Source: Balneolaceae bacterium | Lineage (GTDB): Bacteria > Bacteroidota > Rhodothermia > Balneolales > Balneolaceae | NCBI GenBank assembly: GCA_007694095.1 | Contig: RECI01000207.1 | Location: forward strand, 3,217-67,216 | Length of the DNA stretch: 64,000 bases | Direction: 5' to 3' | Part shown: positions 32,835 to 46,834 of the stretch, one piece after another | Layout: the number at the start of each line of letters is the position of its first letter | How positions within the stretch are numbered: the first letter of the stretch is position 1 | Notes under the pieces: model-generated | The model's input: only the letters and a program-made list of their open reading frames with translations | What the model was told of the DNA's origin: nothing | Databases searched by the model: none | Program-made: the position numbers and the translations under genes

Positions 32835-34481
32835 ATGGAAAATACGGGAACTCGCTTAAACGAAGCCGCTATAGATTTTAAAGAACAATTTGAAGTCAAC
32901 GGTTTTGCAGGCCCGGTAAAAATTTTTCCGGGTGCCCTGGCGGAAAAATTATCAAAGCAATTATCAAGGCAATTATCAAAATCACCCTCACCGGTGTGGT
33001 CAAAGGGGCATGCAGTTTCATCGAGAGATTATTATGATATTGCAACCAATCCAGCTATCCTGGATCGTGTATCTGCAATTTTGGGTGAAGATGTTATGCT
33101 ATGGGGTGCAAGCATGGTGAGCCGGCAGCCCGGCAATGTACATCCCTGGCATTCTGATATGGAAACTGTTGGAGGTATAGGCCGAACCGTTTCTGTTTGG
33201 TTGGGCCTGGATAATGTTAACTATAACTCATCACTGCAGGTTATCCGGCACTCCCACAAATTTGGTGTTACCGTCCAGGAGATGAGGCACAAAACCGGAA
33301 TCGACCGTTTAGATGTAAAACCGGAAATAGTGCTGAAATGGGCCAAAGAAATAAATTCCAGGGCAGGGCTTCTTACCTGTTCAATGAATAATGGTGATGC
33401 TATTTTCTTTGATGGAAACCTATGGCATGGAACAGACAACCTAAACCTGACAGGAACCAGAAAAGCGTTACTCATACAATATGCTACACCCGACCGTCTT
33501 ATTCAGGCTCCATCATACAAACATCTTGACTGGCCATTTCAGTTTCGGGATGATATTCGACCACCCTGTCTGATCGTAAGAGGCTCCGATAAATTTGGCG
33601 TTAACGATATTGTGGAACCTCCGTCTTCATCCAGTAACATCAAAAGCTGGATTGTACAACTGGATTTACCGCTTCAGGATGACAAAGAAAAAGGTTGGAA
33701 ACCTCACCATATACATCACGGATTTTCTCCGGCGATGGAAACTCTAACATGCCATGTATCCGTATTGAGCCCTGGCCGAACACCTCATCCGCCTCACAGG
33801 CACCCTGAAGAAGAGATTTTGATTGTGCTCGATGGTAAAGCCACTATTTTGATTGGTGATGACGTTGATCAGCAATCAAAGACCATGCACCGGGGTGAAT
33901 TTGTATATTATCCCGGCGGCCAAACCCACACCATCCGGAATGATTCCAATTCCAACATCACATATCTGATGTTCAAATGGCATAATAAAAACGTAAAACA
34001 ATCCGGCGATTTACTCCAAACCTCGATAGTTAACCAATCAAATGAGAATGGCCCAAGCCGGAATTTCGAATCCCGGTCATGGACTGTGAGAAGGTTATTA
34101 CAGGGCAAAACTGAACACCTTTCAAAATTACACTCTCATATGAGTATACTTAAACCGGGTGGTGGTTATGAACCTCATGCTGACAATTATGATGTAGCAC
34201 TTCTTGTTTTAAGCGGTACTGTGGAAACGCTTGGCCGAAAAGTTGGGCCTAATGGTGTAATATTCTATTTTACCGGAGAACCTCATGGAATAAAAAATAT
34301 TGGTGATGAAAATGCTTATTATCTCGTTTTTGAATTTCATGCCGGTACACATCAGAAGAATTTAAAACGTCTTATTAAAAAAGCTGTCTGGATAATACTG
34401 GGATACACTTCCCGGATTTTACCGACACCAATGCGCATTAAAGCAAGGAAAACACTTTCATCTCTTCGGGTCAAAACCTGA
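32835..34481 (+). CDS. PhyH-type Fe(II)/2-oxoglutarate dioxygenase fused to two cupin domains
   Basis: ILDRVSAILG, PWHSD, SVWLGLD, LWHGT..R; cupin 1 HPPHRHPEEE..QTH; cupin 2 EPHADNYD..EPH. Confidence 0.8.
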   Translation: MENTGTRLNEAAIDFKEQFEVNGFAGPVKIFPGALAEKLSKQLSRQLSKSPSPVWSKGHAVSSRDYYDIATNPAILDRVSAILGEDVMLWGASMVSRQPGNVHPWHSDMETVGGIGRTVSVWLGLDNVNYNSSLQVIRHSHKFGVTVQEMRHKTGIDRLDVKPEIVLKWAKEINSRAGLLTCSMNNGDAIFFDGNLWHGTDNLNLTGTRKALLIQYATPDRLIQAPSYKHLDWPFQFRDDIRPPCLIVRGSDKFGVNDIVEPPSSSSNIKSWIVQLDLPLQDDKEKGWKPHHIHHGFSPAMETLTCHVSVLSPGRTPHPPHRHPEEEILIVLDGKATILIGDDVDQQSKTMHRGEFVYYPGGQTHTIRNDSNSNITYLMFKWHNKNVKQSGDLLQTSIVNQSNENGPSRNFESRSWTVRRLLQGKTEHLSKLHSHMSILKPGGGYEPHADNYDVALLVLSGTVETLGRKVGPNGVIFYFTGEPHGIKNIGDENAYYLVFEFHAGTHQKNLKRLIKKAVWIILGYTSRILPTPMRIKARKTLSSLRVKT

Positions 34482-34511
34482 CAACATCCTACCTTTTGCA
34501 GATGAAATATC

Positions 34512-34638
34512 GCATTAAGCAATAGGCGAAAAAGACTTCCGAAGTCTCTCTTCATTTTTTTAAAACTTCGATTGTTTAATCTATACGGTATTCTTTTGCA
34601 AGTTCGAAAGACTTCGGAAGTCTATCGCTTAATCCGGG
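34512..34638. repeat. REPIN/MITE-like element, copy 1
   Basis: AGACTTCCGAAGTCT (34533-34547) and its reverse complement AGACTTCGGAAGTCT (34609-34623), 61 bp apart; flanks match 46420-46545 in inverted orientation. Confidence 0.85.
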
Positions 34639-34791
34639 ATAAGATCATTTCTCATCGGAAAGACATCTCCACAGCCTCGTTTCAAACATAACGAGCAGGT
34701 CTCGGGCCATCCTGGCTGACCACATCAGCCAGAGTACTGTTTACAACAGATAATCTCGGTCCTTGGTCTTTCCGGGTTGAAAAAACATTAC

Positions 34792-36372
34792 TCATGCCTG
34801 TTTTACATGCTGATTTACCATCCGCTGTATGCCCAAAGGATTGCCTTCTTTCAGTTCATTGGGAAGCATGGCATCGGGAAAATCCTGGTAGCAGACAGGC
34901 CTGCTGAACCTGTAGATGGCTGCTGTTCCTACGGAGGTGGATTGTGACGAAGTACTGGCCGGGTATGGACCACCATGCATCATTGAAGAACATACTTCCA
35001 CGCCGGTAGGATAACCGTTAAAGATCAGGCGGCCTACCTTGCGTTCAAGAATCCGGATGAGTTCTTCATACGCGGCAAATTCTTGTTCTGAACCGTGGAT
35101 GGTAGCCGTTAAGTGGCCCTGAAGCTTTCCGGCGATAGTTAACATCTCTTCCTTCCCGGATACATTTACAAGAAGTGTGGAAGGACCAAAGATTTCCTCA
35201 TCTAGCTTATCATGACTTTGGAATGTTTTGTAATCTGTTGTATAAACGCATGCCGAGACCTGGTTGTCTTTTTCTGATAACCGGCCGTCTGCAGTTTTTT
35301 CAATACCGGGAATTGTTTCAAGTTTTTGCAATCCTGTAATGTAATCATCTTTAATTCTCCCGGAGAGCATTGTTCCTGCCGGGATAGCCGCTATATTATT
35401 TTGCAGATTATTCAGAAATGCGTCAGCCTCATCAGATTTTTTTGTAATAATCAATCCGGGACTGGTGCAAAACTGGCCAACACCAAGCGTTACAGAATTG
35501 GTGATTCCGGAAGCGATTTTTTCACCCCATTCTTTTAAGGCTCCCGGTAAAATAAATACAGGATTGGAACTTCCCATTTCTGCAAAAACAGGAATCGGTA
35601 TCTCCCGTTGATTGGCAGCATCAAAAATAGCCTTGCCCCCTTTGAAAGAACCTGTAAACCCAATTGCGGTTATTTTTGGATGTTTCACAACATCCATACC
35701 CACCTGATTGGAAACACCCTGCAACAGTGAGAAAACACCGTCCGGCATGTTTGATTTTACAGCTGCTTTCAGGATTGCTTTCGCAACAATTTCTGAGGTG
35801 CCCGGATGCAGGGGATGTGCTTTTACAACTACAGGACAGCCCGCTGCAAGAGCCGAAGCCGTGTCACCACCGGCCACGGAAAAAGCCAATGGAAAATTGC
35901 TGGCACCAAAAATTCCTGCAGGCCCAAGGGGAATCTGCATGTAGCGCAGGTCAGGTTTCGGCACCGGTTGCCTGCCGGGGATGGCCGTATCTATTCGGGC
36001 ATCAACCCAGGAACCTTCACGTACTACATCAGCAAATAATTTTAACTGGTTTACGGTACGCCCCCGTTCACCTGTAAGCCGGGCTTCAGGCAGGGCAGTT
36101 TCCAACATACAACGTTGAATGAGCTCATCGCCAAAATTCAGTATTTCATCAGCGATAGCTTCCAGGAAAGAAGCCCGCTCCTCATTCGATTTCATCCGGT
36201 ATGGTAAAAATGCTTCGTCTGCCTTGGATACAGCACGTTCAACTTCATCCGGTGTGGCTGATTTAAAGTGTGTTTCAAGCAGGGATTGGTCAGCGGGGTT
36301 TACAGCCTGGAATGTTTCCGATCCCTGTCCTGAATGATCAAGTCCAATAAAGTTAAGGCCTGTTAAAGTCAT
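34792..36372 (-). CDS. NADP-dependent aldehyde dehydrogenase (alpha-ketoglutaric semialdehyde dehydrogenase-like)
   Basis: ASNFPLAFSVAGGDTASALAAGCPV, FTGS..GG, EMGSSNP, GVGQFCTSPG, EEIFGP, HGGPYPAS, RPVCYQ. Confidence 0.9.
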   Translation of the reverse strand: MTLTGLNFIGLDHSGQGSETFQAVNPADQSLLETHFKSATPDEVERAVSKADEAFLPYRMKSNEERASFLEAIADEILNFGDELIQRCMLETALPEARLTGERGRTVNQLKLFADVVREGSWVDARIDTAIPGRQPVPKPDLRYMQIPLGPAGIFGASNFPLAFSVAGGDTASALAAGCPVVVKAHPLHPGTSEIVAKAILKAAVKSNMPDGVFSLLQGVSNQVGMDVVKHPKITAIGFTGSFKGGKAIFDAANQREIPIPVFAEMGSSNPVFILPGALKEWGEKIASGITNSVTLGVGQFCTSPGLIITKKSDEADAFLNNLQNNIAAIPAGTMLSGRIKDDYITGLQKLETIPGIEKTADGRLSEKDNQVSACVYTTDYKTFQSHDKLDEEIFGPSTLLVNVSGKEEMLTIAGKLQGHLTATIHGSEQEFAAYEELIRILERKVGRLIFNGYPTGVEVCSSMMHGGPYPASTSSQSTSVGTAAIYRFSRPVCYQDFPDAMLPNELKEGNPLGIQRMVNQHVKQA

Positions 36373-36424
36373 ATTTTTAAATTTTTTGTTGAAAAAAAGA
36401 ATAAGTACTTAAAATGTAAAGTTT

Positions 36425-37258
36425 TCAGTTACCAACATAATTTACCAAAGTTCCGATATGGTCAATCGTTATTCGTACTTCATCACCTGTTTCAAGGGTA
36501 AAATTGTCTGGCGGAACAATACCGGTTCCGGTCATCAGTAAACATCCGTCAGGAAAAGTAGTTTCCATGTACAAATAACGTACCAGATCCTTGAATTCAC
36601 GCTTGATCTGGCTTACATCCGTTTCGCCTTCAAATACTATATTTCCACGAATAATCTCCAGGCGAATACGCGTGTCATTCGGTAAAGCGGCTCCCGGCAC
36701 ATAAATACATGGGCCGATGGCAGCTGCCCGGTCGTAGCTTTTTGCCTGTGGCAGGTAGAGTGGGTTTTCCCCTTCTATATCCCTGGAACTCATATCATTG
36801 CCTATAGTATATCCAATAATTTCTGCATCTGAGTTTATCAGCAGAGTTAGCTCCGGTTCCGGGACATTCCATCGTGAATCTTTTCTGATTCTTACTATCT
36901 CCCCGGGGCCTGCTGCCCGAAAAGCCATAGATTTGAAAAACAGTTCAGGCCGGTCAGCATGGTAAACACGGTCATAAAAATTGCCTCCGCCCGAATGTTT
37001 GGATTCATCCATTCGTGCCTCCCTGCTTCTATAATATGTGACACCTGCAGCCCATATCTCCTGGCTGCCAATAGGTGCGATTAATTCATTTTCAATTCGT
37101 TGACCGGCATCCGGAAAAGGGGAAAGATCCCTGGTAATATCTTTTAAATAGTCGTGCAGGTTGCCCCTGTTTATTAATTTATCCCAGTTTTCATTGAAAA
37201 GATAATAGTTCAGTTCATGTTCGACCAGAATTCCACTTTTTGTGTTATATATTTTCAT
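36425..37258 (-). CDS. Fumarylacetoacetate hydrolase-family protein (2-keto-3-deoxypentonate dehydratase-like)
   Basis: QEIWAAGVTYYRSREAR, RPELFFKS, WNVPEPEL, GNDMSSRDIEGENPLYLPQAK, LMTGTGIVP. Confidence 0.85.
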   Translation of the reverse strand: MKIYNTKSGILVEHELNYYLFNENWDKLINRGNLHDYLKDITRDLSPFPDAGQRIENELIAPIGSQEIWAAGVTYYRSREARMDESKHSGGGNFYDRVYHADRPELFFKSMAFRAAGPGEIVRIRKDSRWNVPEPELTLLINSDAEIIGYTIGNDMSSRDIEGENPLYLPQAKSYDRAAAIGPCIYVPGAALPNDTRIRLEIIRGNIVFEGETDVSQIKREFKDLVRYLYMETTFPDGCLLMTGTGIVPPDNFTLETGDEVRITIDHIGTLVNYVGN

Positions 37259-37290
37259 AGGAAGGAAGGTTGTATAAAGGCGTGGTTCAA

Positions 37291-38628
37291 TTATAAAATA
37301 ATAAATCTCAAAATGGTCAGGAATATCATAGCCGAAAAACCGAGCACCGCCGATCCAATGGTTTGAAGCTGATATCCCTGGCTTACACTCATTCCACTCA
37401 TTTGTGTAACTACCCAGAAGAAGCTGTCGTTGGCGTGAGATACCACAGCCGATCCTGCACCAATGGCAATTACCATCATCGCTTTAGCCAATTCGGTCTC
37501 CAGGCCCATATCAGGTACCAGGGGAGCAAGTATGGATGCAGTAGTGATAAGTGCTACAGTGGATGAACCCTGTGCTGATTTAATGGCCGCAGCTGTGAGG
37601 AAAGGCAGCCAGATACCGAAACGGGATCCTCCGATCATTGTCCCTAAAAGAACACCTATGTCGGAACTTTGCAAAACTTTGCCGAATGCACCACCCGCAC
37701 CGGTAATCAGTATAATAATGGCTGCGCTTTGAAGTGCCTTGCCAACCCAGCCGCTGGCACCGAACATGGATTTATCCAGCTTTTTTGGCAGCAGAAAAGC
37801 GAAAAACATACCCACACATAGTGCTGCCACAGGGTGGCCAATGAAACCGATGAACGTTTTAAATTGACCGTCGCCGAAAGGTTCTGTGGGATAGTTGCCA
37901 ATGGATCGCAATACGATAAGGATGATGGGAATAACAATTGGCAGAAACGATTTAAAGGGAGATGGGGCGCCAATGATTTTTTGTTCTACCTCTTCTTTTT
38001 GCAGTTCTGGTTCGGGGTCTATATACACTTTCTTTCCTATGTATTTAGTAAAGAAAATGATAACAACAAGGGCGCCTGTACTGGTAAATAATCCCAGCAG
38101 CATAACCATGCCGAGATCAGCCTGTAGGAGTCCTGCCGCAGCGATAGGCCCGGGAGTTGGCGGCACCATGGTATGAGTGGCAGTTAACCCCATGGAAAGT
38201 GCAATGGCCGTGCCGGCAATGGACAGGTTGGCTTTTTTTGTGAGCGCCTTGTTAAGTGAAGCCAAAATAACAAACCCGCTGTCGGCAAATACAGGGATCG
38301 ATACGATATAACCGATCACAGCCATGGCCGTGTGTACACTTTTTTCCCCGATCCAAATCAATATCCGGTGTGCCAGGGCGTATGCCCCACCCGAATTCTC
38401 AAGGAAAACCCCGATAATAATGCCGATGATGATAATAAGGCCAATTTGCCCTAAGGTACCGCCAAATCCCTCATTGATGGCAAGTATTATCTGCTCTGCA
38501 GGCATACCCGAACCTATTCCAAATAAAAATGCAGCGGTTAACAATGCGAGAAAAGGATGCAGGTTATACCGGGCTGTGGAAACAACTATGAAAACTATGC
38601 AAAGCAGAATCAGGATTACGGTGAGCAT
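37291..38628 (-). CDS. GntP-family sugar-acid permease
   Basis: LHPFLALL, GFGGTLG, HTMVPPTPGP, TGAGGAFG, AQGSSTVA, SHANDSFFW. Confidence 0.93.
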   Translation of the reverse strand: MLTVILILLCIVFIVVSTARYNLHPFLALLTAAFLFGIGSGMPAEQIILAINEGFGGTLGQIGLIIIIGIIIGVFLENSGGAYALAHRILIWIGEKSVHTAMAVIGYIVSIPVFADSGFVILASLNKALTKKANLSIAGTAIALSMGLTATHTMVPPTPGPIAAAGLLQADLGMVMLLGLFTSTGALVVIIFFTKYIGKKVYIDPEPELQKEEVEQKIIGAPSPFKSFLPIVIPIILIVLRSIGNYPTEPFGDGQFKTFIGFIGHPVAALCVGMFFAFLLPKKLDKSMFGASGWVGKALQSAAIIILITGAGGAFGKVLQSSDIGVLLGTMIGGSRFGIWLPFLTAAAIKSAQGSSTVALITTASILAPLVPDMGLETELAKAMMVIAIGAGSAVVSHANDSFFWVVTQMSGMSVSQGYQLQTIGSAVLGFSAMIFLTILRFIIL

Positions 38629-39032
38629 GGTTCTGTGTGTTTTTTTAGTTGCTTGATTAAGCTGTCCTCAATCGGCTGAAAAAAAAAGACGGCTCGGTTA
38701 CTATCCTTTTTAAGAAACTGACATCATTATGGATATTGTTTTTATAATGACGGCGTGTTCAGGTTAAGGTCAATTCCCAATCCTGTCAAGTATTATTTTA
38801 ACGGGTATCGCAGGGTTAAATCAATTTTCACGAATCGAACCATGGCTGCCTGAAACGGGCCGATTTTTTATTATAATTTTTTAATTATCATTTGAATAAC
38901 TCAAGATTTTTATGCACTTTCGGTTTTTGAAATAAACAAAAAACAATCTCACTTTTCTAAAAGGCATGCCTGTTTTGAGAAGTAAAGAGGTTTAGAGGGA
39001 ATGCCTGGCGAAAATTCTAAACGGAGAAAAAC

Positions 39033-39431
39033 ATGGTTCCACAGCCTGTTACGCAACGAAGAAACGAGAAGCAGTCAGATTTACCCGTCATACGTTTTAC
39101 GCGGTTTCATTGTCGGCAAACAAAAGCTTTCCTTTTTGTTTTTTTGATCATCATACCTTTCTCTTCCGGGTGCTACCATTACAGGGTAATTGCACCTGAT
39201 CCTGAACCCGCAACAGACTATGAAAAGCGTACGGTGCACTCCCTTTTCTGGGGCTTGATGCAGGCCAGGGACATTTCTGCCGATGACTGTCTGAGCAACG
39301 CCCTCGACGAGATCCGAATAACCACCAACCTTGGCTACTCTGTAATTTCGGTGGCTACAGTCGGAATCTGGATGCCGATGGATTTGCGATGGCGATGTGC
39401 AAAAGAACCACTGTTTGAAGGTGAAATTTAA
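39033..39431 (+). CDS. Bor/Iss-like outer-membrane lipoprotein
   Basis: Hydrophobic stretch plus SSGC lipobox; HSLFWGL, C..N, VATVGIWMP..RWRC match the Bor pattern; the true start may be downstream. Confidence 0.7.
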   Translation: MVPQPVTQRRNEKQSDLPVIRFTRFHCRQTKAFLFVFLIIIPFSSGCYHYRVIAPDPEPATDYEKRTVHSLFWGLMQARDISADDCLSNALDEIRITTNLGYSVISVATVGIWMPMDLRWRCAKEPLFEGEI

Positions 39432-39446
39432 ATCGGGATACATAGC

Positions 39447-40973
39447 ATGGCCAGTAAACTGAAAGCACGAATAGTTAAGAAAAAGCCGGGAAAATGGACC
39501 AATAAACATGAGAACTTCAGTATACAAATTTCCGGTCTCTACGATATCTGGAATCCCAGCGTATCAGCAAACCGGCAGCTTGAAGCATACAATGCCACTA
39601 CAAAATCTCTTCAGAATCTGATCGGCACAGTATCAAAAAAAGGTGAGCGCATCAGGGCATTAGGCAGTGCATGGTCGATCTCCCGGGCCGCAGCCACCGA
39701 TGGCAGACTCATCAACACCAAGCCGCTGAACCGCCTTTTTCGTGTCAGCGACCCAAGTATTTCTGACAGCTATACCGGAGATTCCAAAAACCTCTATTTT
39801 GTTCAGTGCGGGGTTTCGATTGGCGAATTGAACCGTTATCTGCGGCTGCAGGGCAAATCGCTGAAAACATCAGGCGCCAGCAACGGCCAAACCATTGCAG
39901 GGGCACTTTCCACCGGAACTCATGGCTCAGCCATTGATACAGGGTCTGTCCAGGATTTTGTTAAAGGTCTTCACCTCATCACAGGGCCAAACCGCCATGT
40001 GTGGCTGGAACGAGCCTCCGATCCGGTAACTACACCTGGTTTTGCTGATCGCCTGGAAGCGGAAGTGATCAGGGATGATAACACCTTTAATGCCGCTCTC
40101 GTCAGCTTTGGCAGCTTCGGGATCATTCACGGTGTACTCATCGAAACCGAAGATATCTACCTGCTGGAAGCAAGCCGCATTAAACTGCCTTTTAATGATG
40201 ACCTCAAGCAAGTGATTCATACGCTGGATTTTAGCCGTATACCCCTGCCTGAACCGGAAAACCGGCCATACCATTTCGAAGTTGTGATTAATCCGCACGC
40301 TGCTGATGATCAGGCATTCAGTACGGTAATGTACAAGAGACAGTACCAGGAAAATAATGCAGAACGACGGAGGGCTTCAGGCGGTTTTCAGCCGGGTGAT
40401 GATTTCCTGGGAGTGATCGGGACTCTGCTGGATATTGCACCTTCTGCTATTCCCACAGCGGTAAACCAGCTCCTCGCTTCCCAATACCGCGAATATTCGG
40501 GACGAACCGGCACACTTGGCGACATATTTTCGGCCACGGGTATTCGCGGCAAAGCAACCGGTGCGGCTATGGGTGTACCGCTGGAGAAAACCCTGCAAGC
40601 CCTCGACGCAATACTGAAAGTTCACAACCGGAGTAAAAATTTTCCCGGGGTTATTGCACTCAGGTATGTAAAAAAATCGGATGCATTACTGGCATTCACC
40701 CGCTACCCCCCTACCTGTATCATCGACCTGGATGCAGTAGATAACCAAACTGCCCGCAATTTTTTCAGGGGCGTGTGGCGGGAATTTGAAATGCAAAACA
40801 TCCCATACACCCTGCACTGGGGCAAGGCTAATGAACTGACCTCCGAAAATTTACAAAATATGTACGCCGACGATCTCGATATCTGGCTGAACATTCGCCG
40901 CAGCCTGCTGGATGAAGAAAACCGCTTCACATTTTCAAGCCCGTTTACTGATCAATGCGGTTTATCAGAATAG
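39447..40973 (+). CDS. VAO/PCMH-fold FAD-binding oxidoreductase (ALO/GULO-like)
   Basis: IRALGSAWS, QTIAGALSTGTHGS, VSFGSFGII, C-terminal LHWGK. Confidence 0.85.
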   Translation: MASKLKARIVKKKPGKWTNKHENFSIQISGLYDIWNPSVSANRQLEAYNATTKSLQNLIGTVSKKGERIRALGSAWSISRAAATDGRLINTKPLNRLFRVSDPSISDSYTGDSKNLYFVQCGVSIGELNRYLRLQGKSLKTSGASNGQTIAGALSTGTHGSAIDTGSVQDFVKGLHLITGPNRHVWLERASDPVTTPGFADRLEAEVIRDDNTFNAALVSFGSFGIIHGVLIETEDIYLLEASRIKLPFNDDLKQVIHTLDFSRIPLPEPENRPYHFEVVINPHAADDQAFSTVMYKRQYQENNAERRRASGGFQPGDDFLGVIGTLLDIAPSAIPTAVNQLLASQYREYSGRTGTLGDIFSATGIRGKATGAAMGVPLEKTLQALDAILKVHNRSKNFPGVIALRYVKKSDALLAFTRYPPTCIIDLDAVDNQTARNFFRGVWREFEMQNIPYTLHWGKANELTSENLQNMYADDLDIWLNIRRSLLDEENRFTFSSPFTDQCGLSE

Positions 40974-41077
40974 TCAGTTTTTTTCCGGGATGTGATGCCG
41001 GAATTCATCGGGACAAGCGGACAATTCTGATCTGAAATTGAAATTTGAACAATCTGTTAAAACCTAATCCAACAGCC

Positions 41078-42670
41078 ATGAATCGACTGATTATTGACCT
41101 GCATGCCCATCCACAAATGAAACCGATCAATTCAAGTGATGCAGAACGTGAAATGAAGGGAATCTGGAAAAAATTCGAAGAATCACAATATTGCGGTGAA
41201 TTGAACAGGCAGCTCAGAAATTCCCTCAGTGAAACCAAGAAAAAATCCCAGGCCAATTTTGAACAGGCAATTGAAGGGAACGTGCGTGGTGTTTTCCTGG
41301 CGATGGGGCCGGTAGAGAGGGATTTCTTCAAGCCCGATCCACGCCATTTCCTGTTAAAACTGATCTTAAAAAGAAGACAGTACAGAAATCTTGCGGCATG
41401 CATTACTGCTTTTGATATTCAAAAAGTTGACAAGATATTCACTCGCATTGAAAACAAAAAAGGGGTGAATTATTTCAACGAAGAGCTTATGGAAGAGTAT
41501 AAATTCCTAATTGATCAAGTTAAAAAAAGCCAAAATCAGCCCAATAAAATGGTAATTGCCGGCGATTACACAGAATTTCAAAAACACATCAGAGATGAAA
41601 ACACCATAACCACTGTACTAACCGTTGAGGGGGCACATTCGCTGGGCAATTATGCCGAAGATGAAGATTTCTCAAGGAACATCCGTGAAGCTAACAGCGA
41701 TATTCTCTATAACCGCCTGATGCCTGATTTTGAAAAAAACATCGAAAAAATGAAAACGTGGGGAGGCGGTCGGCATGCTCCATTTTTTATTACCATCTGC
41801 CATCATTTCAGCAACCTCCTGGCGGGCCATGCTAAAAGCTTTTCTCCACGCCAGGGCCTGTTAACACCTGGAATGGATGACCTTCTCAACCAAAAAGCGG
41901 GTAAAAATGAGGGATTTTCACGTCTTGGCAGGGATGTAACTGAACTGCTGCTCAGTAAAGAAAACGGCAGAAGAATTCTGATCGACGTAAAACATATGAG
42001 TGTAAAAGCACGGCTGAAATTTTTCAGAATGGTTGAAGAAAAGTATTGGTCTAGGGGTGAAGAGTTACCTCTAATCTGCAGCCATGCTGCACTAAGCGGG
42101 TATAAAACTATCGAAGAATCAAACAGGAGCGATACCTTCCGACGGTGGCGAAATCACTACTTGAGCCGCCAGTCCATCAATATGAGTGATGAGGAGGCCC
42201 GGATTATTGCACGCTCGAACGGACTTGTGGGAATTGTGCTGCACGGCGGGCGTCTGCCCGGTGGCCGCGCCAAACAGCAAATAGACAATGCCACTAATGT
42301 TGACAATGACAGGCTCAGGGATGAAAGCATCAGGCTGATCATGAGCAATATTTTTCAGTTTGTAAGGGCTGCAGGCGATAAAAAAGCGTGGGATTGCCTT
42401 TGTATCGGTACAGATATGGACGGTGTCATTGTTCCGTTCAAGATTTATCCGAATTATTCTCAGATGCAGAATCTTGCCATCCACTTCTATCAGTTCTTTA
42501 CCCGTCCTCTCGACCTCAGCGAAATCGAAATGGATAAAGAACAGGTAAAAGAGTTCATGTACGGATACGATGCGGAGGAGCTCACCGAAAAACTGATGAG
42601 CCAAAATGTTTTGAACTTCATGGAAAAATATTTCCATGAAGGTTATCTGAGTCGTGGGGCAATCGTATAA
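41078..42670 (+). CDS. M19 membrane-dipeptidase-like amidohydrolase
   Basis: DLHAHP, TVEGAHSL, ITICHH, LIDVKHMS, ICSHAA, GLVGI, IGTDMDG; start set at the ATG at 41078 (ORF track TTG at 41045). Confidence 0.8.
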   Translation: MNRLIIDLHAHPQMKPINSSDAEREMKGIWKKFEESQYCGELNRQLRNSLSETKKKSQANFEQAIEGNVRGVFLAMGPVERDFFKPDPRHFLLKLILKRRQYRNLAACITAFDIQKVDKIFTRIENKKGVNYFNEELMEEYKFLIDQVKKSQNQPNKMVIAGDYTEFQKHIRDENTITTVLTVEGAHSLGNYAEDEDFSRNIREANSDILYNRLMPDFEKNIEKMKTWGGGRHAPFFITICHHFSNLLAGHAKSFSPRQGLLTPGMDDLLNQKAGKNEGFSRLGRDVTELLLSKENGRRILIDVKHMSVKARLKFFRMVEEKYWSRGEELPLICSHAALSGYKTIEESNRSDTFRRWRNHYLSRQSINMSDEEARIIARSNGLVGIVLHGGRLPGGRAKQQIDNATNVDNDRLRDESIRLIMSNIFQFVRAAGDKKAWDCLCIGTDMDGVIVPFKIYPNYSQMQNLAIHFYQFFTRPLDLSEIEMDKEQVKEFMYGYDAEELTEKLMSQNVLNFMEKYFHEGYLSRGAIV

Positions 42671-42958
42671 GCGGCGGATATTCAGGGTTTTGGAACCTGT
42701 CATTACAAATACGACAGTGGCCGGGAAGGAGATTGGTTTTTGACAGGTTTCTCACCAAGGAAACAAGCCCTAGCCATTTACATCATGGCGGGGTTTGATG
42801 ATTTTCATGATATCATGGAAAAACTTGGAAAGTATAAAACCGGTGTATCCTGCCTTTAAGTGAAAAAATTGGGCGCCATTAACCTGGAAAAATTGAGAGA
42901 ACTTTCAGTTAAATCACTCGAAGCCATGAAGATAAGGTATCCGTGTGATATCTGGTAA
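42671..42958 (+). pseudogene. 5'-truncated DUF1801-like gene with an internal stop
   Basis: Manual translation GFGTCHYKYDSGREGDWFLTGFSPRKQALAIYIMAGFDDFHDIMEKLGKYKTGVSCL*VKKLGAINLEKLRE; TAA at 42857-42859 where Tyr is expected; no start codon upstream. Confidence 0.8.
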
Positions 42959-42966
42959 AACAGCGG

Positions 42967-43557
42967 CTACTGCAGAATGTTGTTGGCATCATTCTGTTTT
43001 CTTCGCAGTTCAAATATGGTACGGGTATCGGGGCTAACCTCACCATATATCCATAAAATGATGCTTACCTCAATAAAGGCCACCGTATAGGTAAATACAA
43101 TGAATCGTATCACCAATGTTGTATCCATAAAAAAGGATGCCAGCACCCCAAAAAAGAACAGTACACCACTCGATCGGCTGAGATGGGTATGCAGAAAAAG
43201 AATTTTTCCGATTTTAAGCTGTGAAATCAGCATTGAAAAGCCGAAAATGACAATGCAGAAAACTACATACGGAATATTTGGTACAAGGTATTCCGGAAAA
43301 AGATAAATCAAAAACCAGGCGGCGGATATATAATATGCAACATCAGCTACGGCATCAAGCATGGAACCGAAATCTGTGGTTTGATTCCACCGGCGGGCCA
43401 ACAGACCGTCAAAGTAATCTGTAAACCCTAAAAAGATAAACCAGCACACGAACCATAAAGGAGATTCGAAGTGAACAAATATAAAAAGCAGAGGAACACC
43501 CAATAGCCGTATCATCGAAAGGGCATTGGGAATATTGATATATTCGCGGGGGATCAT
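42967..43557 (-). CDS. CDP-alcohol phosphatidyltransferase family protein
   Basis: NIPNALSMIRL, TDYFDGLLARR..TTDFGSMLDAVAD. Confidence 0.9.
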   Translation of the reverse strand: MIPREYINIPNALSMIRLLGVPLLFIFVHFESPLWFVCWFIFLGFTDYFDGLLARRWNQTTDFGSMLDAVADVAYYISAAWFLIYLFPEYLVPNIPYVVFCIVIFGFSMLISQLKIGKILFLHTHLSRSSGVLFFFGVLASFFMDTTLVIRFIVFTYTVAFIEVSIILWIYGEVSPDTRTIFELRRKQNDANNILQ

Positions 43558-43771
43558 AGGCAGTTGTTACTATCGTGGAAATGAAACGGCATCTGGTTGG
43601 TTGCGGTAAAAATAACCCTTGCAGCTTATAAAACAATAAAAATCTTTTAACCGGTTTAAATTAATCCCAGTACCGGATATGAAACAATCGCATCCTTTTG
43701 ATCTGATTTTACTATATTGGAATCACACGACTCTGAATAAACATTCGTTATTATCTTAAAAAAGCGCTTTT

Positions 43772-44716
43772 ATGGACACCCGGGAAAAACTTGATGCATT
43801 TCAGAAACGGATCGATAACGATGAAAAAATTGAACCGAAAGACTGGATGCCGGATCGTTATCGAAAGCAGTTGATTCGCATGATGAGTCAACACGCACAT
43901 TCTGAAATTGTGGGAATGCTACCGGAAGGCAACTGGATTACCCGTGCTCCGTCACTTGAACGCAAACTCGTGCTGCTTGCCAAAGTTCAGGACGAAGCTG
44001 GTCACGGATTGTACCTGTATAGTTCAACAGAAACACTGGGTGCGCGCAGGCAGGAACTTGTGGAAGATTATATCTACGGTACTGCTAAATATTCCAGTAT
44101 TTTTAATTATCCAACCCTTACGTATGCGGATATCTGCGTAATTGGCTGGCTGGTGGATGGTGCGGCTATTGTAAATCAAACCATGCTTGCAAAATCTTCG
44201 TACGGACCGTATGCAAGGGCAAATATCAGGATCTGCAGAGAAGAGAGCTTCCATAAAAAACAAGGGTATGAAATGCTCGCTAAAATGGCAGCCGGTACTC
44301 CCGAGCAGCGAAGAATGGCACAGGATGCTGTAAATCGCTGGTGGTGGCCAACCCTGATGATGTTCGGCCCCCCCGATGATGAGTCGCCCAACAGTGCTGA
44401 ACTGATTAGATGGAAAGTAAAAACCAAAACCAATGATGAATTGCGCCAAAGTTATGTTGACCAGATGGTAATGGAGGCTGAGGCTATTGGGATAAAACTC
44501 CCTGATCCCGAATTAAAGTACAATAATAATACCGGTCACTGGGATTTTGGCGAAATTCCCTGGGACGAGTTCTGGAATGTGATAAAAGGCAACGGCCCAA
44601 TGAACCGTGAACGGATAAAGGCCCGGCGTAAAGCCTACGAAGAGGGTGCCTGGGTGAGGGAAGCAGCCATGGAATATGCCAGGAAGAAACAACTTCGTGA
44701 AGAAAAAGCATCCTGA
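43772..44716 (+). CDS. paaA: 1,2-phenylacetyl-CoA epoxidase subunit A
   Basis: [59 protein letters not shown]. Confidence 0.96.
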
Positions 44717-44723
44717 AAAACAG

Positions 44724-45044
44724 ATGAGTAAGAGTAACAGCAAGCCGATATCACACTATCAAAACGAATGGCCGCTTTGGGAGGTATTTTACCAGCCCGG
44801 GAACGGAAAACCGTTTGAACATGCGGGTAGTGTGCATGCTCCAGATGCCGAAATGGCCCTTCAAAATGCACGTGATACGTATGCACGCAGAAATGAGGGA
44901 ATTGCCATTTGGGTAGTACCGACTGATCAGATCACCGCAACAACACCAGAAGATTCCGAAGCCTTTTTTGATCCCGCAGGAAATAAACCCTACCGGCATC
45001 CCCAGTTTTACTCAACACCCAGAGCCGTCAAGAAAAGGAAATAG
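44724..45044 (+). CDS. paaB: 1,2-phenylacetyl-CoA epoxidase subunit B
   Basis: WPLWEVF, HAGSVHAPDAEMALQNARDTYARR.EG..IWVV, KPYRHPQFY; start set at the ATG at 44724. Confidence 0.93.
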   Translation: MSKSNSKPISHYQNEWPLWEVFYQPGNGKPFEHAGSVHAPDAEMALQNARDTYARRNEGIAIWVVPTDQITATTPEDSEAFFDPAGNKPYRHPQFYSTPRAVKKRK

Positions 45045-45060
45045 TCGTGAAACTAAACAA

Positions 45061-45849
45061 ATGAGTACACTTGAAACTATCCCTAATTCCAAAAAAGAAG
45101 TCCTGGTCGAGATTTTGCTTCGCCTGGCAGATGACAGGCTGATTCTAGGTCACCGGCTTTCGGAGTGGGCAGGCCACGCTCCTGAACTGGAGGAAGACCT
45201 GGCCCTGGCGAATATTGCACTGGATATGATCGGGCACGCCTCGGCCCTGTATGGGTATGCCGCTCAGCTGGAAGACAAACCGGATGAAGACCATTATGCA
45301 TATTTTCGGGACGATATCGATTTTAAAAACATTGCCCTCACGGAACTGCCACGCGGTGATTTCGCCTTTACAACAGCACGCCTTTTTCTTTTCAGTACTT
45401 TCAGTTATCTGTTATACAATAATATAACTCAAGTTATTGAAGAAGAACAGTTTAACGGAATTATTAAGAAACATTTTAATGAAATAAAGTATCATCTCAG
45501 GCACAGCAGGGAGTGGGTACTCAGGCTTGGTGATGGTACAGATCTGAGTAAACTTAAGATTCAACAGGCGATAGATGACCTTTGGATGTATACAGGTGAA
45601 ATGTTTGAAACAGATAAAACTGAAAACCTGGCTGCCGGTTATAATCTGTTTATTGATGTTCCGGTTTTGAAAAATGAATGGATGAAATGGGTTACAGAAA
45701 CCCTTGAAGAAGCGACGCTTAAGACCCCCGATAACAATCAATATATGTTTACAGGCTCAAGACAAGGACGCCACACTGAACACCTTGGCAGGCTGCTTGC
45801 CGAAATGCAGTTTTTAAGGCGCTCTTACCCTGATGCGGATTGGAAATAA
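45061..45849 (+). CDS. paaC: 1,2-phenylacetyl-CoA epoxidase subunit C
   Basis: LADDRLILGHRLSEWAGHAPELEEDLALANI, EIKYH, GRHTEHLG.LLAEMQ; start set at the ATG at 45061. Confidence 0.94.
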   Translation: MSTLETIPNSKKEVLVEILLRLADDRLILGHRLSEWAGHAPELEEDLALANIALDMIGHASALYGYAAQLEDKPDEDHYAYFRDDIDFKNIALTELPRGDFAFTTARLFLFSTFSYLLYNNITQVIEEEQFNGIIKKHFNEIKYHLRHSREWVLRLGDGTDLSKLKIQQAIDDLWMYTGEMFETDKTENLAAGYNLFIDVPVLKNEWMKWVTETLEEATLKTPDNNQYMFTGSRQGRHTEHLGRLLAEMQFLRRSYPDADWK

Positions 45850-45861
45850 TCAAAGATTATC

Positions 45862-45896
45862 AAATTCCAAATCTCAAATCTCAGGTCTCAGGACTA
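45862..45896. repeat. Heptamer-register tract between paaC and paaD
   Basis: AAATTCC AAATCTC AAATCTC AGGTCTC AGGACTA. Confidence 0.6.
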
Positions 45897-45901
45897 AACA
45901 A

Positions 45902-46414
45902 ATGAAAATAAAACAACCCATTGCAGAATCACAGATCTGGTCATGGCTGGAAGAGGTTACAGATCCGGAAATCCCCGTACTGAATGTGGTGGAGATGGGT
46001 ATTGTGAGAAACGTTGAAATAGGTAAATATGACGAGATCACCGTTAAAATTACTCCTACCTACTCCGGTTGCCCGGCGATGAATGCAATTGAAAATGAGA
46101 TTCACAAAAAGCTTCTGGATAAAGGAGCCTCAAACTATCGCGTTGTTACCGACTATAAAGAGATTTGGACAACAGACTGGATGACAAACAATGCAAAACA
46201 AAAACTGAAGGAATACGGCATCGCACCTCCGGAAAAAACACCGGCCGGTAAAGATTTTCTCACATCCCTGAAAAGCCAGCAAAAAATTGTACCCTGCCCC
46301 TGGTGCGACTCTATGGAGACAGAACTCCAAAGCGAGTTTGGATCCACCGCCTGTAAGGCTCAATATTATTGCAACGAATGTTTACAACCATTTGAATATT
46401 TTAAGTGTATATGA
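45902..46414 (+). CDS. paaD: 1,2-phenylacetyl-CoA epoxidase subunit D
   Basis: VTDPEIPV, TPTYSGCPAM, WTTDWM, CPWCDS..SEFGSTACKA.Y.C..C.QPFEYFKCI; start set at the ATG at 45902. Confidence 0.94.
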   Translation: MKIKQPIAESQIWSWLEEVTDPEIPVLNVVEMGIVRNVEIGKYDEITVKITPTYSGCPAMNAIENEIHKKLLDKGASNYRVVTDYKEIWTTDWMTNNAKQKLKEYGIAPPEKTPAGKDFLTSLKSQQKIVPCPWCDSMETELQSEFGSTACKAQYYCNECLQPFEYFKCI

Positions 46415-46419
46415 TTCAA

Positions 46420-46545
46420 CCCGGATTAAGCGACAGACTTCCGAAATCTTTCGGGTTCGTGAAAGAAGCCCTTAAAGATGAAAAGACCGAAGTATTAGAA
46501 AATGAAGAGAGACTTCGGAAGTCTTTTTCGCCTATTGCTGAATGT
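46420..46545. repeat. REPIN/MITE-like element, copy 2 (inverted relative to copy 1)
   Basis: AGACTTCCGAAATCT (46435-46449) and AGACTTCGGAAGTCT (46510-46524); ends CCCGGATTAAGCGA and TTTTTCGCCTATTGCT are shared with copy 1. Confidence 0.85.
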
Positions 46546-46550
46546 GGGTT

Positions 46551-46825
46551 AATCTGACTCTGACAGGAGCTGGCGCACTCTGTCAAAATCAAACCTAAAT
46601 CTGACTCTGACAGGAGCTGGCGCACGCTGTCAGGTCTAATCATAAGCATAAAGCTGTAAGGTACCGTCCACTCGGTTTACCCACCGGAATTACCTTATCG
46701 GGATCTCGGTGGAATCAGTTTTGTGAGGGTTGCAACCCCGGTGAAGATTTGCCTGCGACTCTGGCAGGAAGTCCGCAAAAGCAGCGGACTACTCTGCCAG
46801 GTCTTGAATCTAACGCTGTCAGGTC
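46551..46825. repeat. Cluster of REP-like CTGACAG/CTGTCAG hairpins
   Basis: 35-bp direct repeat AATCTGACTCTGACAGGAGCTGGCGCAC(T/G)CTGTCA at 46551-46585 and 46598-46632; variant CTGGCAG..CTGCCAG at 46761-46800; partial copy at 46814-46825. Confidence 0.75.
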
Positions 46826-46834
46826 AAAAACCGG

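Follow-up and report, generated by a model that had tools for sequence, protein, structure and literature searches.

We analysed a stretch of 64,000 nucleotides from a Balneolaceae bacterium (contig RECI01000207.1, positions 3,217 to 67,216 of the forward strand; hereafter the window), in which three co-oriented genes between positions 39,033 and 42,670 encode a Bor-family lipoprotein, a flavoenzyme and an M19-like hydrolase. We read this locus, with a probability of roughly 0.6, as an accessory cassette in which the lipoprotein and flavoenzyme genes form a self-contained functional core and the M19-like gene is an add-on. An earlier note, made from the window alone, had proposed the three genes as a candidate undescribed system. 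Judged by sequence comparison, the conserved unit consists of genes 1 and 2 only, because a Bor-like gene precedes the flavoenzyme gene in nearly all loci and the identities of the two proteins co-vary; that these two genes are a very strongly conserved pair across phyla is the point that the note had missed. No description of a Bor-flavoenzyme pair was found in full-text literature searches. The new elements are the near-obligate pairing and a Trp-type clade of flavoenzymes, and all of the components belong to known superfamilies.

The first gene of the pair (39033..39431, plus strand) encodes an outer-membrane lipoprotein of 132 amino acids, with a lipobox FSSGC and its cysteine at position 47. 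The second (39447..40973, plus strand) follows after a gap of 15 bp and encodes a flavoenzyme of the vanillyl-alcohol oxidase (VAO) superfamily, 508 amino acids in length, with FAD_binding_4 and ALO domains and without a signal peptide. At least 420 bp of sequence before the flavoenzyme start was available for 78 of the fetched loci, with flavoenzyme identities of 43-81%, and in 77 of them a Bor-like gene directly precedes the flavoenzyme gene in the same orientation. Seventy-one of these passed a strict filter and a further six are loci where the Bor-like match abuts the flavoenzyme start, with L114 being the only locus without an upstream Bor-like gene. The median gap between the two genes is about 19 bp. 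A hidden Markov model (HMM) built from these Bor-like proteins extended the pairing to five distinct genomic loci (L185, L186, L187, L190 and a region covered by both L175 and L178) in which the flavoenzymes are 34-48% identical. The identities of the lipoprotein and the flavoenzyme to the window copies were found to correlate across loci (r = 0.84).

The same arrangement was observed in assemblies retrieved by exact protein look-up, where a small gene lies directly upstream of the flavoenzyme gene in seven out of seven cases; five of the seven small proteins have a Lambda_Bor Pfam match on record and all seven are Bor-like by tblastn. In a 10-row comparison, all seven Bor-linked homologues contain GxxWS, while a distant homologue without a Bor-like gene (L189, 31% identity) has leucine at the position of FAD linkage; the presence of the Trp signature thus follows that of the pairing. 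A metagenome scan with the flavoenzyme detected at least 565 stretches encoding relatives, and 80 more loci were fetched; the named relatives belong to Balneolaceae, Saprospiraceae, Myxococcaceae/Stigmatella and Longimicrobiales, and include a protein of Stigmatella hybrida with 50% identity. Together the loci show the pairing to be near-obligate over 34-81% flavoenzyme identity in several bacterial groups and the two genes to be inherited together, and they are probably also co-transcribed.

The M19-like gene behaves differently from the pair. It occupies 41078..42670 on the plus strand, matches PF01244 and encodes 530 amino acids from the ATG at 41078, the start common to 23 homologues in the alignment, or 541 from a TTG at 41045, the gap to the flavoenzyme gene being 104 or 71 bp respectively. 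The trio could be one integrated pathway in this lineage, with the M19-like enzyme and the flavoenzyme acting in sequence on one small molecule in a process coupled to the lipoprotein. The gene order and an open reading frame (ORF) to ORF gap of 69-71 bp are the same in the window, L002 and L084, in spite of the different flanks of L084, and the spacer between genes 2 and 3 (40974..41077) has no terminator-like site; such sites were sought between the three genes and none was found. Linkage is also retained in L086, where the order is rearranged to a Tle1-like gene, the M19-like gene, two small ORFs, the Bor-like gene and the flavoenzyme gene. In L091, which belongs to a distant flavoenzyme clade, a full-length M19-like gene of 28% identity lies two genes upstream of the pair, an independent association that is unlikely to be due to chance because the M19-like and flavoenzyme families are both rare.

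The distribution of the M19-like family argues against such an integrated pathway, which we regard as rather unlikely. The M19-like alignment was scanned against 185,579 species genomes and 235 stretches encoding relatives were obtained, the best 80 of which were fetched. Among these best 80, tblastn found Bor-like and flavoenzyme genes nearby only in L002, from the metagenome-assembled genome (MAG) G202 of a Balneolaceae member of the same genus with an M19-like identity of 80%; the other 79 loci, at most 60% identical, contain neither gene. In four whole genomes an M19-like gene is present and a flavoenzyme is missing altogether. On the side of the pair, more than 70 pair loci lack an M19-like gene, and G120, a genome of the same genus with 99% completeness, retains the pair in a different genomic setting and is devoid of M19-like genes genome-wide. 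In G057, from the same family, the M19-like gene has fallen into three fragments and has suffered an internal deletion. These decayed ORFs (L087:822-1791, corresponding to G057:C193:8667-9615) miss residues from about 230 to 434, and an intact pair is located 4 kb downstream of them. Linkage of the trio was found only in a seven-member clade and at the one distant locus, L091. In a quick maximum-likelihood IQ-TREE tree of 85 flavoenzymes, the window enzyme falls into a clade of seven rows (support 100), to which all M19-linked loci other than L091 belong. The check that the earlier note had put forward, co-occurrence of the trio across genomes, thus gave a divided answer: genes 1 and 2 are linked across phyla, whereas the M19-like gene is unlinked to them at 79 of its 80 loci, the outcome the note itself had named as refuting its proposal, and a general three-gene system is not upheld.

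A doubtful alternative, at the other extreme, is that the M19-like gene is an unrelated neighbour which was carried along with the pair in one lineage and has no functional link to it. This would agree with our finding no conserved neighbours of the M19-like family's own across its loci, with its loss or decay within the clade while the pair stays, and with the general variability of the gene that follows the pair. Set against this are the second, independent co-localisation in L091, the linkage that outlasts rearrangement in L086, and the observation that the M19-like genes nearest to that of the window (80, 76 and 69% identity, and a pseudogene of 65%) all adjoin the pair. For one M19-like gene of 67% identity, the 6 kb upstream contain no pair and the contig breaks off at the gene itself; L201 starts with a Tle1-like and an M19-like gene as in L086, and then the contig ends. 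Given the second co-localisation in L091, we therefore treat the M19-like gene as a repeatedly recruited optional accessory and not as a case of pure hitch-hiking. As an add-on to the core pair, the gene was probably recruited at the base of the seven-member soda-lake clade that includes the window genome, and later lost or inactivated in some of its members. On present comparisons it is clearly dispensable, a lineage add-on outside the conserved core, and its recurrence suggests that the enzyme could perform an optional step of the pair's process, for example the release or trimming of a substrate.

The flavoenzyme matches PF01565 FAD_binding_4 with 50.9 bits (cut-off 26.4) and PF04030 ALO with 37.7 bits (cut-off 23.1). 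Its scores against NCBIfam models are far under the cut-offs, with 93.7 bits for TIGR01679 (bact_FAD_ox; cut-off 292.25) and 68.4 bits for TIGR01678 (sugar 1,4-lactone oxidase; cut-off 396.8), and for none of the three proteins did the NCBIfam scan give a qualifying model. The motifs TIAGALSTGTHGS and HWGK are present, and the description of an ALO-like flavoenzyme with GSAWS in place of the covalent flavin adenine dinucleotide (FAD) motif is borne out both by the Pfam matches and by the alignment, in which GSAWS is aligned with GSGHS of two alditol oxidases and W76 stands opposite the covalent histidine. The enzyme lacks the histidine that carries the 8-alpha-N-histidyl covalent FAD in ALO, GULO and AldO oxidases, and its own FAD is probably non-covalent. 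W76 is invariant in the 27 family members of the alignment, and tryptophan is likewise present in eight of a further nine homologues that are more distant or were fetched separately. The family invariants further include GASNGQT, STGTHG, R406 and HWG, and an N-terminal extension of about 45 residues is conserved, with W17, H21 and N36 being invariant.

An AlphaFold (AF2) model of the flavoenzyme has a predicted local distance difference test score (pLDDT) of 88, and its top Foldseek matches are L-galactono-1,4-lactone dehydrogenase (GalLDH), alditol oxidase (AldO) and DprE1, at 15-19% identity and with template modelling scores (TM-scores, query-normalised) of 0.62-0.70. The window enzyme shares the two-domain fold with these proteins and contains the FAD-binding STGTHGS and the C-terminal HWGK. 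It differs from them in being about equally distant from all three at 15-19% identity, in having tryptophan rather than histidine or leucine at the linkage position, in the conserved N-terminal extension, in scoring far under the NCBIfam cut-offs and in having a fixed lipoprotein partner. The flavoenzyme is a member of a distinct Trp-for-His family in the aldonolactone/alditol/DprE1 branch of the VAO superfamily.

The lipoprotein of the window is a real but remote Bor homologue, and the homology, as traced by sequence profiles, holds at the level of the family. By itself the window protein scores 21.5 bits against Lambda_Bor (PF06291), which is under the gathering score of 25, while 54 of its 55 relatives match this profile at E <= 0.01, the best of them at 2.1e-10. 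When a profile of the 55 Bor-like members was compared with phage lambda Bor by hhalign, a probability of 94.4% was obtained (E 8.4e-8) over 90 aligned columns that span residues 5-96 of the 97 in lambda Bor. The lipobox cysteine, the internal cysteine and the C-terminal TLGI[YW]xP...C are all in register with lambda Bor, in agreement with the Bor/Iss cysteine pattern that the earlier note had recognised, and the invariant positions of the family are C47, Y48, W73, G74, C86, G111 and C122. A BLAST search of the protein against 50,697 phage records gave no meaningful match, the homology being seen by profile methods only, and no match was found for the family profile among the PDB sequences.

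Like lambda Bor and Iss of E. coli, the window protein is a small lipoprotein with these three elements. The differences are that its gene is chromosomal and lies outside a prophage, that it has no similarity to phage records at the BLAST level, that it falls under the Pfam cut-off when scored alone, and that its sub-family almost always precedes a flavoenzyme gene. The last feature sets it apart from the solitary Bor-like genes of the phylum, which are unlinked to a flavoenzyme, have varied neighbours and occur in about 22 of 400 genomes (loci L203-L232). Chromosomal Bor-family lipoproteins are thus not rare outside enterobacterial prophages, since these solitary copies alone are carried by that number of genomes. 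To our knowledge, the molecular mechanism of Bor and Iss is still unknown.

The third protein matches PF01244 Peptidase_M19 with 52.7 bits (cut-off 26), over profile positions 135-318 only. It opens directly at DLHAHP without a signal peptide, and its candidate metal ligands D7, H9, H11, E184, H306, H336 and D446 are invariant in 24 homologues, with H306 and D446 aligning with M19 motifs and the DxKHMS and GSDxDG stretches aligning with Listeria and other M19 structures. An AlphaFold model has a pLDDT of 94. The top 20 Foldseek matches are all M19-type proteins of the renal-dipeptidase family, at 12-15% identity and with TM-scores (target-normalised) of 0.54-0.75, and the significant matches as a whole are almost all M19-type. 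The protein is accordingly classed, from its sequence and the predicted structure, as a long, divergent and putatively binuclear metallo-amidohydrolase of the M19 fold, predicted to be cytoplasmic and catalytically intact, and the earlier description of it as a long M19-like amidohydrolase without a signal peptide and with its candidate ligands kept is supported by the Pfam match and the invariant residues. M19 enzymes have HxD as their first motif. Compared with the M19 dipeptidases DPEP1, Sco3058, GliJ and PvdM, with which it shares the TIM-barrel fold, its candidate metal ligands being invariant in its own family, the window protein has HxH in this place, is 530 amino acids long instead of 310-400, with extra helical segments, has neither signal peptide nor anchor and is only 12-15% identical; its Pfam match is confined to the latter half of the profile and no NCBIfam model applies to it.

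The empty site in G017 identifies the locus as an accessory cassette, located in a hotspot of variable gene content that is bounded by a cupin-fusion gene on one side and a CDP-alcohol phosphatidyltransferase gene on the other. Judged by its flanking genes, G017 is the closest relative (phosphatidyltransferase 87% and carboxyl-transferase 88% identical); its matches to the cupin-fusion and phosphatidyltransferase genes are about 119 bp apart, and none of the eight intervening window features is present. The cassette genes are rare in relatives, with the flavoenzyme occurring in six of 201 genomes of the family and in seven of 400 of the phylum. A sample of 40 relatives (24 of the same genus) contained neither of these two genes, flavoenzyme or M19-like, with the exception of a flavoenzyme fragment of 60 amino acids at a contig end of G024. 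In L084, the same trio lies between unrelated flanking genes. These findings together bear out the idea of an acquired or accessory cassette. L002, from the same genus, shows synteny with the window at a DNA identity of 72-77%, an intact spermidine-synthase-like gene stands there at the position of the window's DUF1801 relic, and the site has at least three gene-content states within one genus.

The left flank is formed by a conserved gene (32835..34481, plus strand) for a protein of 548 amino acids in which, by Pfam, a PhyH-type Fe/2OG dioxygenase is fused to two cupin domains; it is syntenic with L002 and G017 and is kept in G017 and G202. The conserved right flank is the CDP-alcohol phosphatidyltransferase gene (42967..43557, minus strand), likewise identified by Pfam. 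The right edge of the cassette is marked by the 5'-truncated DUF1801 pseudogene relic (42686..42958, plus strand) with an in-frame stop; as the earlier note had proposed, it is a relic, since its frame (42671-42958) has no start and one internal stop and matches only positions 24-80 of the 85 in PF08818. Relative to G017, two extra blocks flank the phosphatidyltransferase gene of the window. The first (34482-42966) contains the sugar-acid genes, the trio and the DUF1801 relic, and the second (43558-46834) contains paaABCD, which G017 also lacks on the other side of its phosphatidyltransferase gene. Inverted repeats of 125 bp at 34513-34638 and 46420-46544 were considered as cassette ends and rejected, as they belong to a dispersed repeat of about 125 bp that occurs genome-wide, with at least 40 copies in the window genome (G000), at least 40 in G202 and six in G017. 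The two copies are complementary over 46 nt at 98% and 83 nt at 78%, and the repeat looks MITE/REP-like (miniature inverted-repeat transposable element or repetitive extragenic palindrome) and expanded in some species of the genus.

Divergently oriented from the cassette genes is a block encoding, by Pfam, an aldehyde dehydrogenase, an FAA-hydrolase-family protein and a GntP permease (34792..38628, minus strand), which constitutes a separate insert outside the module. The GntP start at 38628 and the start of the Bor-like gene are separated by an intergenic region of 404 bp (38629..39032), and the ORFs confirm the three co-oriented genes with the gaps previously described and a divergent region of about 400 bp. 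A promoter is presumably located within this region, in which a single sigma-70-like match (38850-38877) was found at chance level. A scan of 38400-43800 for riboswitches with Rfam gave no family at E <= 1. The divergent position had led to the suggestion that the trio feeds the neighbouring operon by converting a lactone or sugar to an aldonate, and SGL (gluconolactonase-like) domains do occur in two of the 134 neighbour clusters of the pair. The suggestion fails on the evidence of L002, in which the trio occupies the same locus and the aldehyde-dehydrogenase/FAA-hydrolase/GntP block is missing. In addition, G017 lacks both the operon and the trio, and none of the three operon genes was found in a tblastn screen of the other pair loci. 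On this synteny the feeding role comes close to being refuted.

The gene that follows the pair was found to differ from clade to clade, being C2, DUF1080, a thiamine pyrophosphate (TPP) enzyme, the M19-like gene or nothing. In the 64 loci that extend at least 1 kb downstream, the pair is followed by an opposite-strand gene in 19 cases, by a member of the C2 family in another 19, by an M19-like gene in three and by assorted others in 23. C2 proteins, of about 440 amino acids (mostly 380-475), have no Pfam match, an N-terminal signal peptide and a C-terminal ...GIPFSKIAF/Y that is typical of outer-membrane beta-barrels, and they are confined to one flavoenzyme clade of 34 rows (support 96). The C2 loci (L101:4785-6119 and 18 others, directly downstream of the flavoenzyme) are soil metagenome sequences. 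DUF1080 and the TPP enzyme are each confined to small flavoenzyme clades. Downstream of the flavoenzyme, L084 has the M19-like gene, L087 a tetratricopeptide repeat (TPR) protein of 1448 amino acids and a separate patatin-like protein, L090 a caspase-like gene and L091 unannotated proteins, while L088 and L089 have an opposite-strand gene. Tle1-like genes (DUF2235, PF09994) recur beside the M19-like gene or the pair (L201:4885-5991, L086:1-906 and L097:2033-3283). In both L201 and L086 the Tle1-like gene comes before the M19-like gene, about 10 bp separating the two in L201; the PF09994 match is on the L097 gene, and the L086 copy was assigned through BLAST clustering with it.

The earlier note had also offered a protective or detoxifying module as one reading. 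In a defence version of it, with phage, serum or predation as the threat, the flavoenzyme would make H2O2 or a toxic product and Bor would shield the envelope. Bor and Iss are associated with serum resistance in literature cited by a Leptospira paper, in which a Bor-domain lipoprotein itself appears only as an entry among the regulated genes (PMC8638967), and some pair loci do adjoin Tle1-like, patatin-like, caspase-like or papain-like hydrolases. Nevertheless we judge a defence role very unlikely. None of the three proteins had a match in PADLOC-DB 2.0 at E <= 0.1, and searches of IMG/VR viral contigs and of PLSDB plasmids yielded no flavoenzyme relative. The neighbours of the pair are heterogeneous housekeeping and metabolic genes, with no family found more than three times in a Pfam tally of the 134 neighbour clusters, and the covalent histidine common in the oxidases of this branch is missing from the flavoenzyme.

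For the core pair, by analogy with the three nearest structural relatives, the flavoenzyme would oxidise a hydroxyl (secondary alcohol) or hemiacetal carbon of a sugar-like substrate such as a polyol, an aldonolactone or a lipid-linked sugar. A dehydrogenase is more probable than an oxidase, because the covalent histidine is missing, as it is in GalLDH and DprE1, which both act as dehydrogenases. The process served by the pair may concern the cell envelope, because the constant companion of the flavoenzyme is a lipoprotein of the outer membrane, and the gene most often seen in third position codes for a secreted protein whose C-terminus is of the outer-membrane protein (OMP) type. A more specific version, which we offer tentatively and consider improbable in its full form, is that Bor and the Trp-type flavoenzyme make up an obligate two-component envelope system. 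In such a system a DprE1-like enzyme would act on a lipid-linked sugar or glycolipid, Bor would serve as the receptor, anchor or beneficiary of this enzyme in the outer membrane, and the hydrolases of the individual clades and the OMP-like protein would be optional.

Several points weigh against a functional core of this kind. The samples are dominated by a few lineages, so that 77 of 78 overstates the number of independent observations, and the gene calls in the fetched loci were made with a simple ORF caller. The function of the pair is deduced from sequence, models and analogy, and its placement in the envelope is drawn only from the nature of the neighbouring genes. Furthermore, the flavoenzyme has no signal peptide whereas its lipoprotein partner is exported, which leaves their physical interaction unexplained; DprE1 is a precedent for an enzyme that acts on the envelope without a signal peptide.

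The finding is of value for the lead it gives to what Bor-family proteins do, and not as a three-gene system. It also illustrates how a trio that made a plausible "system" in one window can turn out to be a conserved pair and a lineage-specific passenger. The flavoenzyme defines a large uncharacterised clade with a diagnostic tryptophan at the FAD-linkage position, which falls between the vitamin-C-type dehydrogenases, the polyol oxidases and the tuberculosis drug target DprE1. The Bor and Iss proteins are often cited as virulence-associated lipoproteins, and a deep-branching, non-phage Bor sub-family with a near-constant flavoenzyme partner provides a concrete, testable starting point for finding their role. 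If the two-component envelope system were true, it would be the first biochemical context for the Bor/Iss family.

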